Assembly (NCBI RefSeq): GCF_008065095.1
Contig: NZ_CP042911.1
Coordinates: 1,980,001 to 2,012,000 of the forward strand
Reading direction: 5' to 3'
From: Gemmata obscuriglobus
Lineage (GTDB): Bacteria > Planctomycetota > Planctomycetia > Gemmatales > Gemmataceae
DNA: 32,000 nucleotides
Shown: piece after piece, positions 2,430 through 32,000 of the stretch
Layout: each line of letters begins with the position of its first letter
Position numbering within the stretch: position 1 is the first letter of the stretch
Notes under the pieces: generated by a model
What the model saw: the letters and a program-made list of their open reading frames with translations, nothing else
The model's database searches: none
What the model was told of the DNA's origin: nothing
Program-made: the position numbers and the translations under genes

Positions 2430-3875
2430 CTACAGGAGGTCCGGTTGTGCCGGCGAATGCGGTGGCTCCGCTCCGGCACCGGGCGCCGCGGCTCCCGACC
2501 GCTCAAGCTCGAACGCGCGGCGCTTCTCCTGGGCGAGCGCGAACCACTCCCGCCCGCGGGGCGAACACAGGGCTACCAAGTTCGCCGCGGCGACGGCCAA
2601 GAACAGCGCGCCGAGCGCCAACAGCAGCGTGGACGGCTCGCGGGACACCGAAACCGCGATCAGCCACAGGGTGAGGCACACGACGCACCAACCGCCGACC
2701 CGCGCCCACCGGCGCCCGGTCGACATTTGCCCGCCGGCGAACAGGTGTACGGCCGCGATGCCCGCGAACTCGGGCAGGTCGTTGCTCGTCGGCTTGCTAA
2801 GCAGCAGGAACGCCGTGCAGATCAGGAAGAACGCGCCGAACGCGAAGTTCGCGTACACCGCGGCGGACACGCCCCGCGGGCGGGCGGCGAACACCTCGAT
2901 CGGGTTGAACCGGTACCGGTACCCTGTCGCGGTCACGCGCGCGCCGGCGAGGTGGCGGTCCAGGTCGGCGAGCAACTCGCCCGCGTCCGCGTACCGCTCG
3001 CCCGGGGATTTGGCGGTGGCGCGGTGGACGACGTTGGCCAGGTCGGGCGGCACGGCCGGGTTGCGCCCCGCGAGCGGCGGGATCGGCTTGTGCAGCACTT
3101 CGCCCAGCAGGGCCTCGACCGTTCGGCCCCGGAACGGGAGCGTGAGGGACAGCAGCTCGTACCCGATCAGGCCGAGCGCGTACACGTCCGACGCCGGCCC
3201 CGCGGGGTTCCCGCCGAGTTGCTCGGGCGCCATGTACATCGGCGTGCCGATGGGGCCGCTGTGCGTGGTGAGCGTGGTGTCGGTGAACGACCGGGCGAGA
3301 CCGAAATCGATCACCACAACCCGCCCGTCCGGTTCGACCATTACGTTTTCCGGCTTCAGGTCGCGGTGCGCCACCCCGACTGAGTGCGCGTAAGCGACCG
3401 CCGCAACCAGGTCGCGCCACACGCGCAGCGCGTCCTTCAGCCGTTCCGGCGCGGCCGGCCCGGGCGGTTGCGGCTCCGCGTGCGGCGGGGCCGCTCCGCG
3501 TGGTTGGCGGTTGAGCCACCCGCGGAGCGTCGTCCCCTGCACCTGGCGCATCGCGATGTAGCACGCCTGCGCGGTCTGGCCGACGTGGTACAGTTCGACG
3601 ATGCCGGGGTGCTTGAGTTTAGAAACGGTTGCGGCCTCGCGCTGGAACCGGCCGAACAGCGTCGGGTCGGAAATGGCGCCGCCGAGCACCTTGACCGCGA
3701 CCCATCGCTCCTCGTCGAGGTCCCAGGCCGCGTACACCGTGCCCATCCCGCCGCGGCCGATGGCGCAGTCGAGGCGGTAGCGGCCGAGTACGGTCCCCGG
3801 CGGGAGGTCCAAAGGGTGGTACACCTCGTCCGGGGCGGACGAGGCAAGAGAGACAGGGGGCGACGTGCCGAACAT
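2430..3875 (-). CDS. Ser/Thr protein kinase with a C-terminal multi-pass membrane domain
   Basis: Hanks kinase motifs are present: GRGGMGTVY, VAVKVL, HRDLKPENVMV, DFGLAR and MAPEQ. About four hydrophobic helices occur in the last 150 aa. ATG at 3873-3875 is preceded by GAGGAC. Confidence 0.92.
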   Translation of the reverse strand: MFGTSPPVSLASSAPDEVYHPLDLPPGTVLGRYRLDCAIGRGGMGTVYAAWDLDEERWVAVKVLGGAISDPTLFGRFQREAATVSKLKHPGIVELYHVGQTAQACYIAMRQVQGTTLRGWLNRQPRGAAPPHAEPQPPGPAAPERLKDALRVWRDLVAAVAYAHSVGVAHRDLKPENVMVEPDGRVVVIDFGLARSFTDTTLTTHSGPIGTPMYMAPEQLGGNPAGPASDVYALGLIGYELLSLTLPFRGRTVEALLGEVLHKPIPPLAGRNPAVPPDLANVVHRATAKSPGERYADAGELLADLDRHLAGARVTATGYRYRFNPIEVFAARPRGVSAAVYANFAFGAFFLICTAFLLLSKPTSNDLPEFAGIAAVHLFAGGQMSTGRRWARVGGWCVVCLTLWLIAVSVSREPSTLLLALGALFLAVAAANLVALCSPRGREWFALAQEKRRAFELERSGAAAPGAGAEPPHSPAQPDLL

Positions 3876-3954
3876 GATGTCCTCGGCGCGGAGGGGCGGA
3901 AATGGGCAACGCGAGCACCGGGCGCAGTCTAGCTCGCGTTCCGCGCCATCACAA

Positions 3955-4860
3955 TCATTTCGCGGGCGGGAGCCACCGGGCGAGCAACTTCGTTTGCGGT
4001 CCGGCGGCCCAGTCCTTCGCCCCGCTGCTGCGGCCGACCGCCGTACCGTCCGGGGCGATCAGCCAGACCGTCGGGAGCGCCTGCACCTCGTACCGGGCGG
4101 CCCCGACCCCGCTCGCCTCGACGAGAGCGGGCGCGCCCGGGGCGAACTTGTCGAGCACCGCCTGCGCGTCGGCCGGGGTGTCGGCGTCCGTGCAAACGTG
4201 CAGCACTTTGAGGCGGCCGGCGTGCTCATGCTCCAGTCGTTGAAGGGCCGGAACCTCTTTGACGCAGTGCGTGCAGTTGGTGCCCCAAAAGTGCAGGAGG
4301 ACGAGTTGCCCCTTCAGGTCGGCCAGCCGCGTCGTGCGGTCACGCGCGTCGAGCAGCGACAGCGGTGGCGGCGCGGCGCCGGTGAGGTCTGTGAACCCGG
4401 CGGCGGCCAGCAACTGTGCGTCCGCGGAAAGCGGCTTTACGGAACCGCCCCCGCCGGCCGCGAGCCGCTCGACGTGCGCAACGACCGCGTCCAGATCGGC
4501 CGGCGGGAGGGAGCGGAATGACGCCATTGCGGTCCCCGGAATGCCGTCGAACGTGACCCTCCGGATCGCTTCGGGTGTGGGCGCGAACCGCCACGGGCGG
4601 GCGGCGAAGTCGCGCGGCGGCGGGCGCAACGCGGCTGAGGCGGTCCCGTCACCGTGCCCGTCCGGGCCGTGACACGACGCGCAGTACATCTGGTACACGA
4701 GCGGCCCGCGGTCCGCGACTGGCGCGGGCGCGGGTTGGGTTTGGTCCGGCGCGGGTGCGGGTCCAACCGCCCGTTTGCGCCAGGTGCCGATTCCCCACCC
4801 GACCGCGCCGGTCGCGACCAGTAGGACCGCGGCGAGCAGCGGGAACGAGAGGCGCTTCAT
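3955..4860 (-). CDS. membrane-anchored cytochrome c / thioredoxin-like (TlpA/ResA-type) fusion protein
   Basis: 301 aa. It has a signal/anchor (MKRLSFPLLAAVLLVATGAV), a heme-binding CxxCH (CASCHG) and a thioredoxin-fold CxxC (HFWGTNCTHCVKEVPAL). Its ATG 4858-4860 overlaps the upstream gene's TGA 4857-4859 as ATGA. The 808-aa track ORF is a run-on, so I trimmed it. Confidence 0.88.
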   Translation of the reverse strand: MKRLSFPLLAAVLLVATGAVGWGIGTWRKRAVGPAPAPDQTQPAPAPVADRGPLVYQMYCASCHGPDGHGDGTASAALRPPPRDFAARPWRFAPTPEAIRRVTFDGIPGTAMASFRSLPPADLDAVVAHVERLAAGGGGSVKPLSADAQLLAAAGFTDLTGAAPPPLSLLDARDRTTRLADLKGQLVLLHFWGTNCTHCVKEVPALQRLEHEHAGRLKVLHVCTDADTPADAQAVLDKFAPGAPALVEASGVGAARYEVQALPTVWLIAPDGTAVGRSSGAKDWAAGPQTKLLARWLPPAK

Positions 4861-6257
4861 TTCACTGCTCCTGCCCCTGCGAGCGGCACGACCGTTACGG
4901 CCTTGCCGCTCTCGTCGAGTTCGTTCCACGCGACCACGATTTCTCCGGTCGGGGTGCCGGTGATTGCGGGGCGCGTCTGAAACGCGCCGGTCTTCGGCGC
5001 AACGGCCCGCGCCGCGCCAAACTGTGCGGCCCCCGGCGGCATCGCGCGGTGCATGATCGCGCGCCCGCCTCCGGCCCCCACCGTCGGCGCGACGGGCTCG
5101 TGTTGGTGTTTGGGTGCGGGAGCCGGTTCCGCACCGCTGCTCTCCTCCCACACGGCGTGGAGCGTGCCCGTGGCGTCCGCGAACAACTTGGCATTGCCCT
5201 GCGTGCCGCCCGCGCCCGCGTTCAACTCTTGTGCGGTGAATTTCAGATCCGAGCGCCGAGCGGAAGCGTGGTAGCACCGCTGCGAGCCGGTGCGCGCGTC
5301 CATCCAGGCCACGTGTAGCGTGTCCCCGACGAGCGCAAGCGACGGGCCGTCGTGCGGGCACCCGTTGAACGCCCACGTCGGCGGCACCACCGGAACCACG
5401 TCGAAGGAATTCGCACCGGGGCGCTTGACGCCCAGCGCGATGTCGCGGTAGCCGTTCGCGACGTTGCGGAACGCGACGTAGGCCGTGCCGTCCGGTGCGA
5501 CCAGGCTCGCGGTCGGGCAGCACGGGCACACCCCTTTGTCGTCGTCCCCGGTGTGGACGACCGCTTCGGGCTCGAACGCGGCCGCGCCGGCGGGGCGCAC
5601 CGCCGCGAAACACTGCTGGGCCTTGTTCCGGTTGTCCAGCCAGGACGCGAGCAGCGCCCCGTCCGGGCCGGCGGTGAGCGCGGTGAAGGTGGGCCGTGCC
5701 CCGGCCCCGCGATGCACCTGAGCCGGTGCCCCGAAGGTGTCGCCCCGGTCCCGCGACTCGACCGCTGCCATGCGCACGCCGTTCCCGCCGGGCACCGTTT
5801 CGGTCCACGCGAGGTGCAGCGCCGGCCCCGCGGCGACGAGGTGCGGCACCATGCGCAGCTCGCGGGTGACGGTCTTGCCTTTCATTTGCGAGACCGCTTT
5901 GAACACGCCCGACCGCGCGACCGATCGCGCGGGGGCGAAGTGCCGGGCGCCGTCGTCGGAGCGGGTGAGGTAGAGGGTGCGCTCGTCGTCGCCGGTGCGG
6001 GACGCCCACGCGAGGTACACCCGGCCGCCCGCGTCGGTGGCGAGCGTCGGGGCTTCGAGCGTGTCCTTCGCGTCGGCCGCGCTGAGCGCGAAGCGGCACG
6101 GGGCGGTGGGCGGTGCCGCTTCCCCGGCCGTCGGTGGCGGCGGTTCGGGCGGCCCGCCCGCGAGGTACAACCCGCCCCCGAGGCCGCCGGCCGCGAGGAC
6201 GAACAGAACGGCGTACTTTGCCCAGCCGGGGCGGGCGTCCGGTGCTGTCGCGATCAT
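4857..6257 (-). CDS. BNR/Asp-box repeat (sialidase-like beta-propeller) protein with an N-terminal anchor
   Basis: 466 aa from ATG 6255-6257. It has an N-terminal hydrophobic helix (WAKYAVLFVLAAGGLGGGLYLAG), Asp-box-like motifs (TRSDDGARHF, SRDRGDTF) and Cys motifs (GVCPCCPTA, FNGCPHDGP). The upstream part of the 581-aa track ORF overlaps the DUF1559 gene, so it was rejected. Confidence 0.8.
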   Translation of the reverse strand: MIATAPDARPGWAKYAVLFVLAAGGLGGGLYLAGGPPEPPPPTAGEAAPPTAPCRFALSAADAKDTLEAPTLATDAGGRVYLAWASRTGDDERTLYLTRSDDGARHFAPARSVARSGVFKAVSQMKGKTVTRELRMVPHLVAAGPALHLAWTETVPGGNGVRMAAVESRDRGDTFGAPAQVHRGAGARPTFTALTAGPDGALLASWLDNRNKAQQCFAAVRPAGAAAFEPEAVVHTGDDDKGVCPCCPTASLVAPDGTAYVAFRNVANGYRDIALGVKRPGANSFDVVPVVPPTWAFNGCPHDGPSLALVGDTLHVAWMDARTGSQRCYHASARRSDLKFTAQELNAGAGGTQGNAKLFADATGTLHAVWEESSGAEPAPAPKHQHEPVAPTVGAGGGRAIMHRAMPPGAAQFGAARAVAPKTGAFQTRPAITGTPTGEIVVAWNELDESGKAVTVVPLAGAGAVK

Positions 6258-9487: not shown

Positions 9488-9835
9488 ATGAGAACGATAG
9501 GTTTCCTCCCCGACCGGGCCGTGCCGGGCGTCTTCCCACGCGTTACCGGTGGACTGGTCGCCAGCCCGACCGCGGTCGTACTCGGCGACATCCCGCTCGA
9601 GCAACCGACGAGAATGACCGTCCGGCTCCGCAACAACGGTGCCCTCAATCGGCGCGTCCAATCGGTGGGTGGTCTGCAACCGGACCGGTTCGATGTCCGA
9701 TTGGTGTCGCCCGATGCTTCCGACTCCGGCCACCCCGCTCCGGAATTGCCTGTCGCCGGGACCGGGATGGTTCGGGTGGGGGACGGCTCGTTCACGCTGA
9801 CCATCCCGGTGACAACCGTTGGGGCGAAACCATGA
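9488..9835 (+). CDS. small hypothetical protein, possibly an Ig-like (DUF1573-like) fold
   Basis: 115 aa from ATG 9488, 8 nt after the upstream stop. The segment [31 protein letters not shown] resembles DUF1573-type beta-sandwich proteins. Its TGA (9833-9835) overlaps the ATG (9832-9834) of the next gene. Confidence 0.6.
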
Positions 9836-24746: not shown

Positions 24747-25890
24747 CTACTCAGAGACTGAAACTGGCTGATGGGCGGCCGCCAGTGCCAGCTCAGGTTT
24801 GGCACCAACCGTCCGAATCACGGCTGCGATGGTGCCGGTACCGAGGTGCCGCAGCAGGTACACGGCCACGTTCCGCAGCACCGCCAGCACCCGTGGTGCG
24901 GCGCCCCGGCGCACCCGGCACCGGTCCTCGCCCAAGGTCGCGTCGCGGATGTGGTGCCGGCTCTCGATGCCCCAGTGGGTGCGGGTGTACCGGAGTAACG
25001 CATCGGGTGCCGCGTCTACCGAGCTCAGACTAGAAATCCCGTACACCACCTCCACGGTTGTCTTCCCACCGACCTGACGGGTGCGCGTGAGCCGGAACAC
25101 CTGTTGCACCCCGGGCCACCGGGTCAGGTACTCGTTGAGCCAGGTGGTGGTCGTCACGGTCCGCCGCTCGACCCACCCGTGCCCCTGGCTCACCTCACAC
25201 GCGGTGCCCGCGTCCCGGTCCCACTGGCGCGGCAACCCGGGGGGAAAAGTCGCCCCCGCGGCGGTGGCGAACGCGGCTTCCAGGTCCGTGCACAGCGTAC
25301 CCTGGTTGCTCTTGGCGTACAGGATGTAATCCCCGCCTCGCTCCTGTACCGCGGCGCACACGTCCGGCTGGGTGAACATGGCGTCCCCGGTGATGACGGT
25401 CCCGCCAGCGGGGGCAACACGCCCAGCAACCGGAGCGCCGCCTCGTGCTCGTGGGTGGTGGTCTCGACCGTCATCTGGGCGACCACCGCCGAGACGCCCG
25501 GGGCGCACGCGGCCCGCCGGTGGACCCCCGGCCCCTCGCTGTCTCGCGACCCGTGCAACCGCTTGCCGTTCAACGCGAGGTGTTCCCACCCGTCGGGGTG
25601 CCGGTCCGCCAACCCGTCCCCGATGATCCGGTCCAGGTGGTCGGCGTCCAACTTTCGCAGCAACCCCGCGCTGGTGTTGGGGCACGGCATATTGCCGTGC
25701 CGGAACACCAGCGCGTGACCCAACCGCTTCTGCCGCCGTCGCCCGAACGGAGAAATCGCCTCGGGCGTGGTGTGCCCGCTCATCACCGCTACCAAGCACA
25801 GGGTCAACAGGCCTACCAGTGGTGCTGGCGACCGTGATGGCTCCGCGGGGCCGGTAGCTCGGCCAATCGCTCGACCAGGGAACGGGACAT
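24747..25890 (-). pseudogene. ISAs1-family transposase, interrupted by two frameshifts
   Basis: Three frames: MSRSLVERLAELPAPRSHHGRQH; then PLVGLLTLCLVAVMSGHTTPEAISPFG...HLALNGKRLHGS...EHEAALRLLGVLPPLAG; then TVITGDAMFTQPDVCAAVQERGGDYILYAKSNQ...YTRTHWGIESRHHIRDATLGEDRCRV... The usual IAIDGK catalytic Asp position reads LALNGK. Confidence 0.78.
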
Positions 25891-30084: not shown

Positions 30085-31707
30085 TTAGAAATCGTCGCCG
30101 AGGACTTCGCCGCCCGCCGGTGAGAGCAACGCGCCGAGCGTCTTGTCACTGATGCCGTCCGCGATGAACCGCACCGAGCCGTCCCAGAGCAGCGCCTGGA
30201 ACCCGCCCTTAAACTGACCGCCGAACTTCTTCTTCAAGTCTTTGGGAAGCTCCTTTCCAGGGAGCATGACATCGTCGGGCTTCGTCCAGACGACGGGATC
30301 GGCCGCCTCAACCACTGCCAGCGTGTTGGACGTACCGTCGGTGATAAAAACCAGAGTGGTCGCCAGCGGGGGCATCGCCTTCGGCCCGATCACCATTTGC
30401 AGGTTCGTGTAGCCCGGCTTACCCGGCTTCTGGACCGGAGCATAGATGTTGGGCATCTTCTCGATCAGCTTCTTGTTGTTCTCGGAGTCCCACGGCTCGT
30501 CGAGCTTGAACTGCTTGTACAGCGCGTCCTGCTCGAGGTACGGCAGGAGGGCGACCCGCCAGCTCAGCAGCGGTTTGTCGGTCGCTTTCGTGAGCCTGGT
30601 GCCATTCGCCCCGGTGCCGTGAATCGGAATCCACGCGTTGCTGTCGTGGAAGTTGTGCAGCGCGAGGCCGATCATTTTTAGGTTGTTCGACACCTTCATC
30701 CGCGCGGCGGCCTCGCGCACTTTCTTGGCCCCTTCCACCACCATTGTGCCGAAGTCAAAGTCGGCCTTGTAGTCGGCGACCAGTGTGACGTCCGAGCCGC
30801 TCACCTCCAGCTTCGCGCCCGCGAGGGCGCGGTCGGCCTCCTTCACCGCTGCGAGCAGCGGGCCGAGGTCCTCAGTGCCCTGACGCTTCAGGAACTTCGC
30901 GATCTCGTCGGTTGCGACTTTGATGAACTCCTGACCCTTGTCCTTCGCTTTGCCCGCAGCATCGGCGTCGGCGAACGCCGCGCGCCCGGCAAGGACGAGC
31001 GTTTTGTCTTTCAGGTTCCCGGTCACGGTTACGGCCCGTGCGGCGAGCAGCGGGCCAACATCGCCCATCTCGCGGCCGTTCTTTAGTTCGTTAGGCAATT
31101 TGTCGAGCTGGACGTGGGCGAACAGCGTGTGCCCCGCGGCGGCCTTTGACAGGTCCGGGGTGAGCGGCCAGCCGGCGCGGTCCTTCGCGTACCCGTCGAG
31201 GTACTTTTTCCGCAAGCTTCGGGTCAGCACCACGAGCGTTTTGTCGTCCGGGAAGTGCGCGTCCGCCGTGGGTGAAACGATGTAGCACCCGTCCGCGTCC
31301 GGCTCCGTGCCCTGTTTGATTCCGAACGCCCCGTTCTTGGGGATCGCAGTGTTGGCCTTCACGATCAGGACGAGTTGCGGCCCGTCGCGCTCTGTCACGT
31401 CGGTCACGCAGACCGTCACGGCGTCGACATCGGACGGCTTGAAACCGGTCTGACTGGCGAACCCCTTCTCGACCTCGTTCCACTCGGCTGCGCCACCGGC
31501 CTTCGTGAACGCTTGCCTGATTTCTGCGAACAGGGCGCCGTCGCGGATCTGCTTTATGTCAACGTGCGCGAAAGCGACGTAATCGGATTTCACCGCCGTA
31601 GGCGGGGCGGACGGGTCGGGTGCGGCTTCCTTCTTGCGACACGCCGGCACAACGGTCAGCCCGAAGAGCAAGAGGCCGAACGGCACCAGGAACGACCGGC
31701 GGAACAT
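30085..31707 (-). CDS. probable lipoprotein: a novel N-terminal domain fused to a DUF1559 domain that lacks the pilin-like N-terminus
   Basis: 540 aa. ATG 31705-31707 has a GGAGGAG Shine-Dalgarno. Signal/lipobox-like MFRRSFLVPFGLLLFGLTVVPAC. Residues from about 320 to the end match the DUF1559 body ([28 protein letters not shown] ... LLWDGSVRFIADG...PAGGEVLGDDF). Confidence 0.88.
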   Translation of the reverse strand: MFRRSFLVPFGLLLFGLTVVPACRKKEAAPDPSAPPTAVKSDYVAFAHVDIKQIRDGALFAEIRQAFTKAGGAAEWNEVEKGFASQTGFKPSDVDAVTVCVTDVTERDGPQLVLIVKANTAIPKNGAFGIKQGTEPDADGCYIVSPTADAHFPDDKTLVVLTRSLRKKYLDGYAKDRAGWPLTPDLSKAAAGHTLFAHVQLDKLPNELKNGREMGDVGPLLAARAVTVTGNLKDKTLVLAGRAAFADADAAGKAKDKGQEFIKVATDEIAKFLKRQGTEDLGPLLAAVKEADRALAGAKLEVSGSDVTLVADYKADFDFGTMVVEGAKKVREAAARMKVSNNLKMIGLALHNFHDSNAWIPIHGTGANGTRLTKATDKPLLSWRVALLPYLEQDALYKQFKLDEPWDSENNKKLIEKMPNIYAPVQKPGKPGYTNLQMVIGPKAMPPLATTLVFITDGTSNTLAVVEAADPVVWTKPDDVMLPGKELPKDLKKKFGGQFKGGFQALLWDGSVRFIADGISDKTLGALLSPAGGEVLGDDF

Positions 31708-31746: not shown

Positions 31747-31986
31747 TCACCGCTTCAATCGCTCACGCACGGACTCCAGCACCGACTGCTCGTCGGGGAA
31801 CGTTCCGGTTTGGAGCTTCGAGTAGATTAACTCGCCGTTAACCGTGACCTCGAAGCACCCGCCGCCGGCGGGTACGAGCGTCAGCCCCTTCACTTTTTGT
31901 TTCAGACTCGTGAGCAGTGTGGCCGCCAGACTGACGGCTTTGGGCTCGTACCCTCAGAGCGAGCAGTACTTCAGTTCGATGTTCAT
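31747..31986 (-). CDS. SelW/SelT/SelH (Rdx) family selenoprotein, CxxU motif with an in-frame UGA
   Basis: Hand translation from ATG 31984-31986, with an AGGAGA Shine-Dalgarno 8 nt upstream: MNIELKYCSL[TGA 31954-31956]GYEPKAVSLAATLLTSLKQKVKGLTLVPAGGGCFEVTVNGELIYSKLQTGTFPDEQSVLESVRERLKR, stop at 31747-31749. The frame stays open for 68 codons after the TGA. The sequence matches the Rdx pattern (YC..U/C.Y..RA..L ... GG.FEV.V.G.L..SK...G.FP). It is not in the ORF track because of the TGA. Confidence 0.75.
31922..31938 (-). promoter_or_regulatory. candidate bacterial SECIS stem-loop
   Basis: Minus-strand RNA 5'-GCCGUC AGUCU GGCGGC-3' forms a 6-bp stem including one G.U pair. Its 5-nt loop contains GU. 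It begins 15 nt after the UGA. An outer GAGC/GCUC pairing is possible. Confidence 0.35.
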
Positions 31987-32000
31987 TAACGTGTTCTCCT

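Follow-up and report, generated by a model that had tools for sequence, protein, structure and literature searches.

Near the end of the window (the whole 32,000-nt stretch of Gemmata obscuriglobus DNA analysed here), the minus strand carries a frame that resembles the SelW/SelT/SelH proteins and is interrupted at its eleventh codon by a TGA. Is this TGA a stop, a lesion or a selenocysteine (Sec) codon? An earlier note, made from the letters alone, had favoured the last answer: it proposed that a complete 79-codon gene, missing from the list of open reading frames, is read on this strand if the TGA is decoded, that an AGGAGA Shine-Dalgarno sequence stands 8 nt before its ATG, and that the frame remains open and family-like for 68 codons past the TGA. 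Direct translation of the minus strand from 31986 to 31747 agrees, giving MNIELKYCSL*GYEPKAVSLAATLLTSLKQKVKGLTLVPAGGGCFEVTVNGELIYSKLQTGTFPDEQSVLESVRERLKR*, that is, 79 sense or recoded codons before the terminator (Table 1). The Shine-Dalgarno sequence is present where the note had placed it, and the 68 codons lie in the same frame, with the family profile matched end to end. The full-length gene was indeed unlisted, the mechanical list holding only a 48-aa remnant with a GTG start (31747..31893, minus strand) and antisense frames. Since the gene starts only 14 nt from the window edge, the upstream region was taken from a public record of the locus (L001); there, at 9706-9722, the Shine-Dalgarno sequence is lengthened to GAGGAGA and the site reads cgaacgAGGAGAacacgttaATG. 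In L002, an independent assembly of this organism from Logan, the 240-nt gene is identical, TGA included.

Table 1. Features of the selW-like locus and of related loci. Positions are those of the window unless a locus handle (L) is given.
Feature	Location	Strand	Remarks
Predicted SelW-like (Rdx family) selenoprotein CDS	31747..31986	-	79 codons including Sec11, then terminal TGA
Shine-Dalgarno-like AGGAGA	31995..32000	-	8 nt before ATG, read from the sequence
Cys8 codon TGC, first CxxU redox residue	31963..31965	-	invariant Cys, 77/77 distinct homologues
In-frame UGA, codon 11 (predicted Sec11)	31954..31956	-	TGA in 78/79 anchored loci
Putative SECIS stem-loop GCCGUCA-GUC-UGGCGGC, codons 17-22	31922..31938	-	7 bp; from codon usage, pairing and covariation
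Conserved core of the putative SECIS	31936-31932 with 31928-31924, GUY triloop 31931-31929	-	5 bp
Genuine terminator TGA	31747..31749	-	no SECIS-like hairpin after it; next gene starts at 31707
Publicly annotated CDS, 60 aa, CTG start at codon 20 (very probably truncated)	31747..31929	-	gene call at L001 9779-9961
Equivalents of the anti-sigma-like gene	L003, L004, L008, L009, L013, L015, L017, L018, L032, L056		
selW then selD, same strand	L010, L011, L015, L016, L017, L023 (~3270-4390)		six Planctomycetota loci, several of them Gemmataceae
selW-selD-selA-selB	L075 3591-6216; L076 2410-5003		two Verrucomicrobia MAGs
SelD-related oxidoreductase fusion, divergent	L020 3481-4512; L022 432-2756	opposite to selW	Pirellulales MAGs
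Further sel-linked loci	L039, L058, L059, L062, L080 (~6020-6230); L044 2-1612		
In-frame TGA of selD	L010 3298; L011 3298; L015 3398; L016 3386; L017 3384; L075 3633; L076 2443		

Does the product, read through the TGA, belong to a recognizable family? Profile searches were run with the U of the product written as C. The Pfam Rdx profile (PF10262) matched residues 2-75 over positions 1-74 of its 74, with an E value of 1.7e-20 and 73.4 bits against a cutoff of 22.6, and the NCBIfam model TIGR02174 (CXXU_selWTH) scored 73.9 bits against a cutoff of 34.2. The NF041051 equivalog (SelTWH_Campy) scored 73.5 bits, below its cutoff of 88. Judged by these scores, the gene belongs to the broad SelW-like subfamily and not to the Campylobacter-type equivalog. 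Eight Rdx-fold PDB entries (2LJK, 3DEX, 2FA8, 2P0G, 2OBK, 2OKA, 2OJL and 2NPB) were matched over residues 3-77, and from these solved structures a thioredoxin-like Rdx fold is predicted for the product. In the printed alignments, YCSL-U-GY stands opposite YCepCGF (2LJK), YCtqCrW (3DEX), YCtqCnW (2FA8) and YCrqCnW (2P0G). The YC-x-x-C of these four proteins matches YC-S-L-U, and the UGA therefore occupies the second redox residue: C8-S-L-U11 falls on the CxxC of the solved Rdx-fold proteins, their second Cys aligning with codon 11, exactly where the earlier note had located the TGA within the CxxC/CxxU motif. One further cysteine, Cys44 (31857-31855), lies outside the CxxU motif of the family, in a GGGCFE segment, and is near-invariant (71/77 clade sequences); it could act as a resolving residue or as a third ligand.

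We then compared 80 related loci, obtained by scanning one genome per species, of which 79 were anchored; they come mostly from Planctomycetota (Gemmataceae and Pirellulales), with a few from Verrucomicrobiota, Eisenbacteria and Latescibacterota. The same codon is TGA in 78 of the 79 anchored loci, and the protein is conserved on both sides of it in a single frame, with the pattern MxIxLxYC[SA]x-U-[GN]YEPKAVSLA. Conservation extends over codons 1-10 and 12-66, with synonymous variation outside the hairpin described below. Before the TGA, Y7 is kept in 74/77 and C8 in 77/77 sequences, yet the codons used vary: TTG, CTG, CTT or CTC for L5, TAC (47) or TAT (27) for Y7, and TGC (62) or TGT (15) for C8. 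Because the protein is conserved while its codons vary synonymously, codons 1-10 are translated in frame with the 68 codons that follow the TGA. The Gemmata algarum locus is 95% identical over residues 1-79, and no Cys form at codon 11 was found among the 80 related loci or the listed protein matches. The sole sense codon is a GGT (Gly) at the Sec position in an uncultured Gemmataceae MAG (L041 50-286, CALEEC010000172.1), which also reads GGGSFE, with Ser in place of Cys44; from its sequence, this locus looks like a Sec-loss variant in which the redox motif was also given up. The earlier note had named beforehand, as grounds for abandoning its reading, homologues that end at the TGA and orthologues with a sense codon and a disrupted frame, as in pseudogenes. 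Neither was encountered: the 78 loci continue in frame past the TGA, and the single sense-codon exception has lost the hairpin too.

The earlier note had pointed to a GU-containing hairpin starting 15 nt after the UGA, where a bacterial SECIS would be expected, and GCCGUCA-GUC-UGGCGGC at 31938-31922 begins exactly there, its GUC/GUU loop beginning 22 nt after the UGA. In a local 23-nt fold it reaches -10.3 kcal/mol (z = -3.28), and of the window's 666 TGA triplets only 14 (2.1%) precede a comparable hairpin. Only this local hairpin stands out, the 71-nt region after the UGA being no more stable than its shuffles (z = -0.13). Across the clade, codon choice at positions 17-21 is nearly fixed, with A17 written GCC 63, GCT 12 and GCG 2 times, V18 GTC in 75/76, S19 AGT in 75/76, L20 TTG 69 and CTG 8 times (of 77), and A21 GCG 58, GCA 10 and GCC 2 times; at other positions of the gene, Val, Ser and Leu each use at least four codons. 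This collapse of synonymous-codon entropy is the signature of an RNA element inside the coding sequence. Base pairing agrees with it. When the pairs of the window's 7-bp stem were counted in the ungapped 80-sequence alignment (A1), 86% of the stem cells were paired, versus 24-55% with the partner slid by 1 to 3 columns, and both sides had changed in 11 cells, against a shuffled mean of 1.6 (none of the 500 shuffles got to 11). Of the 80 sequences, 78-80 retain the five inner pairs and only about half the two outer ones, and covariation is limited to one inner pair (C-G 66, U-A 10, G-C 1). RNAalifold independently returned the same 5-bp core with its GUY triloop. In the Gly-containing locus, a G·G mismatch replaces the covarying pair, and the fold reaches only -1.8 kcal/mol (z = 0.08). 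A search of the window with all Rfam families gave no match, the hairpin reaching the threshold of no curated family. The element is uniform enough (…AAR GCC GUC AGU UUG GCG…) to be used as a simple search pattern for genes of this kind in Planctomycetota.

Taken together, these results lead us to conclude, with a probability of about 0.92, that the locus is functional and encodes a SelW-like (Rdx-fold) selenoprotein of 79 residues, its UGA being recoded as Sec. In the mechanism that we propose, the ribosome would arrive at the UGA of codon 11, the stem-loop 15 nt downstream would recruit SelB-GTP-Sec-tRNA(Sec) through its GU-containing triloop, and selenocysteine would be inserted in place of termination. 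The UGA that ends the gene lacks such an element and would act as a stop. To judge from the family, C8-x-x-U11 would cycle between the selenol/thiol and the selenenylsulfide forms, and the product would probably be a small thiol-dependent oxidoreductase.

Three other readings have to be weighed, which the comparative data make jointly very unlikely. The least improbable of them, though very improbable in itself, is that near-cognate suppression or reassignment lets the UGA be read mainly as Cys, Trp or Gly in place of Sec. In selenium-limited bacteria, UGA is known to undergo near-cognate read-through, and one relative does carry Gly (GGT) at codon 11. Reassignment of UGA as Gly or Trp is ruled out, since the terminator of the same gene is a TGA, which is also the commonest stop among the long open reading frames of the window (24/42). 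As for suppression, the conserved SECIS-type hairpin, its selD-like triloop and the linkage to sel genes in relatives (see below) point to SelB-dependent insertion of Sec.

Slightly less probable again is that the codon-11 UGA is an ordinary stop and that the product is the annotated protein of 60 aa (CTG start) or one of 48 aa (GTG start). NCBI, JGI and other callers did make such calls, here and in 120 listed homologues. The public product (P0001), which starts MAATLL..., is named 'SelT/SelW/SelH family protein [Gemmata obscuriglobus]', and among the 120 database matches listed all homologues are N-truncated, 47-69 aa long, covering about 59-76% of the query. Each of these was called from some start codon past the UGA, and the choice of start differs from one to the next, which argues against this reading; the CTG annotated in G. 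obscuriglobus lies within the conserved hairpin. Moreover, a product begun there would be missing the family's two defining elements, beta-1 and the CxxC/CxxU motif. Purifying selection acts on the protein encoded by the ten codons upstream of the TGA, which share the frame of the rest, and the full-length start has both a Shine-Dalgarno sequence and an ATG. We conclude that the public G. obscuriglobus annotation, starting past the UGA, is very probably truncated. That gene callers would miss or truncate this gene had been anticipated by the earlier note; besides the 60-aa call of NCBI and the truncated homologues, no gene at all was called at this locus in the L002 assembly. The G. obscuriglobus record and essentially every entry of the clade (47-69 aa) are without the catalytic N-terminus, and the clade entries merit re-annotation as 77-80-aa selenoproteins with a transl_except at the UGA. 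The third reading, a pseudogene decaying in G. obscuriglobus after a Cys codon (TGC/TGT) mutated to the stop TGA, is every bit as improbable as a true stop and is effectively refuted by the comparative sequences: TGA is one substitution away from TGC/TGT and Cys-form Rdx proteins exist, but the same TGA recurs across several orders and at least two phyla with no Cys form among the loci or the listed protein matches, the gene matches that of G. algarum at 95% identity from end to end and is unchanged in a second assembly, and its SECIS is intact, with 7 bp exceeding the family core.

The preferred reading, a Sec-decoded UGA, implies that the organism possesses Sec machinery, as the earlier note had pointed out. 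The selA, selB, selC and selD genes have all been reported in G. obscuriglobus, in the text and in a BLASTp-based supplementary table with IMG gene ids (Table S8; PMC4807772). The tRNA table of the same work gives 0 tRNA-SeC for this species, though Table S8 gives a selC gene id (PMC4807772). In our own searches, a Gemmataceae SelD probe (L017) returned no G. obscuriglobus SelD among its top 120 matches, metagenomic relatives having filled the list, ARAGORN found no tRNA-Sec in the window or in 60 loci, and neither the window nor the next 10 kb contained a sel gene, a tRNA or an Rfam family. A genome without selABCD was the note's third ground for abandoning its reading; the published gene set speaks against it, and our SelD probe did not add to that support. 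The selW-like gene provides a concrete selenoprotein for a model planctomycete whose use of Sec had previously been inferred from machinery genes only.

The surroundings of the gene differ between lineages. In G. obscuriglobus, a pair of genes outside the window (L001 8322-9613) ends 110 nt before the SelW-like gene; it encodes a sigma factor of the ECF type (Sigma70_r2/r4_2) and an anti-sigma-like protein of 248 aa with an HxxxCxxC motif (HLATCPAC). The anti-sigma-like frame is kept at this place in 10 other loci, mostly Gemmataceae (Table 1). This upstream pair may indicate thiol-stress control of selW in Gemmata. Between the anti-sigma gene and selW, also outside the window, lies a perfect 10-bp GC-rich inverted repeat, GAACGCCCCG-gcgcaagt-CGGGGCGTTC (L001 9636-9663), about 60 nt before the selW ATG and without a U-tract, which could be a terminator of the sigma/anti-sigma operon or a regulatory element; a scan of L001 9500-10100 for sigma-70 promoters and terminators gave nothing relevant. 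On the other side, 40 nt downstream of selW, the gene for a 540-aa protein (30085-31707, minus strand) has a GGAGGAG ribosome-binding site to itself and may be co-transcribed with selW; the protein has a signal or lipobox-like sequence at its N-terminus and an SBP_bac_10 (DUF1559-type) domain at its C-terminus. Farther away, a DDE_Tnp_1 transposase gene of the public record (window ~24748-25509, L001 16200-16961) marks an insertion sequence about 6 kb from the SelW-like gene. In Pirellulales, syntenic housekeeping genes flank the SelW-like gene, and in other lineages sel genes do. The largest 'family' of neighbouring frames (50 loci) was discarded, being an antisense reading of the SelW-like gene itself.

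The sel neighbours were identified with E. coli SelD, SelB and SelA probes, and matches were accepted only after confirmation by Pfam or NCBIfam (349 bits to TIGR00476 for SelD, 325 bits to TIGR00475 for SelB, 2e-70 to PF03841 for SelA). Counted without regard to shared ancestry, the SelW-like gene has selD, selA or selB no more than 3 kb away in 16 of the 80 loci. The linkage takes at least four arrangements (Table 1) and is absent in G. obscuriglobus; in Pirellulaceae, selB lies about 2.8 kb from the SelW-like gene. The adjacent 'selD' of L020 and L022 encodes a 775-aa fusion (Pyr_redox_2 + AIRS + AIRS_C), which may belong to the NCBIfam 'oxidoreductase/SelD-related fusion protein' family (TIGR04369) and not be a true SelD. 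The neighbouring selD genes are themselves selenoprotein genes, with an in-frame TGA in SCAG-U-AGKL, the known Sec/Cys site. About 33 nt downstream of this TGA, a 6-8-bp hairpin displays a GUN triloop (…CAG-GUN-CUG…), as in the selW SECIS, and a triloop common to both genes is expected if one SelB reads both.

Because the linkage to sel genes recurs in at least four different arrangements, we entertain, as a long shot, a role for the SelW-like protein as a working part of the selenium-utilisation pathway in Planctomycetota and Verrucomicrobiota, and not just as a generic redox protein; this is doubtful. The protein may, for example, reduce selenium or hand it to the Sec-containing SelD, or be the selenoprotein that keeps the Sec trait under selection. 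We found no report of selW-sel gene linkage in the searched literature. The repeated coupling of selW to selD, selA and selB is the only lead of some research value here, and a mildly new one.

How, finally, does the gene compare with known systems? The earlier note rated it as more novel than it is. Selenoproteins of the bacterial SelW-like CxxU kind date back to about 2004, and papers of 2005-2006 already listed them as known. In marine metagenomes no other bacterial selenoprotein family is as abundant, with 48 Sec against 7 Cys forms in the Sargasso Sea data and 427 against 56 in the GOS data. A redox function has been suggested for them, the function being unclear (PMC1088965), and SelW annotations that are truncated or missing in GenBank have been explicitly reported (PMC4607533). 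We found no literature report that names the Gemmata gene as a selenoprotein, but with a family known since about 2004 and its misannotation documented, the novelty is low and the conceptual picture is unchanged.

More distant relatives differ in their redox residue or in their SECIS. Mammalian SELENOW (PDB 2NPB) shares the family profile and has its CxxU at the same position, with marginal similarity (E = 9.6e-4, residues 3-71); its SECIS lies in the 3' UTR, whereas the hairpin here lies in the coding region, just after the UGA. Eukaryotic SelW depends on a kink-turn SECIS in the 3' UTR and on the factors SBP2 and eEFSec. The Cys-type bacterial Rdx proteins (3DEX SAV_2001, 2FA8 Atu0228, 2P0G, 2OBK, 2OKA and 2OJL) and human MIEN1/C17orf37 (2LJK), matched with E values of 5e-11 to 2e-6, have Cys in place of Sec, about 105 aa with extra termini, and no SECIS. 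At 5 bp (7 bp in Gemmata), the conserved stem falls short of that of the E. coli fdhF-type SECIS; it bears a triloop, with no bulged U evident. By contrast, nothing essential distinguishes the gene from the bacterial SelW-like selenoproteins (PF10262, formerly PF05169; TIGR02174), which, as here, are about 80 aa long with an N-terminal CxxU and have an in-frame UGA followed, within the coding sequence, by a SECIS with a small G-containing apical loop. What sets this lineage apart among them is a very uniform SECIS, with a UCA-GUY-UGG core and its loop 22 nt after the UGA, the near-invariant Cys44 of GGGCFE, and the lack of Cys forms among the 80 loci. In conclusion, the gene is a sound yet unremarkable case within a bacterial selenoprotein family that is already well known.
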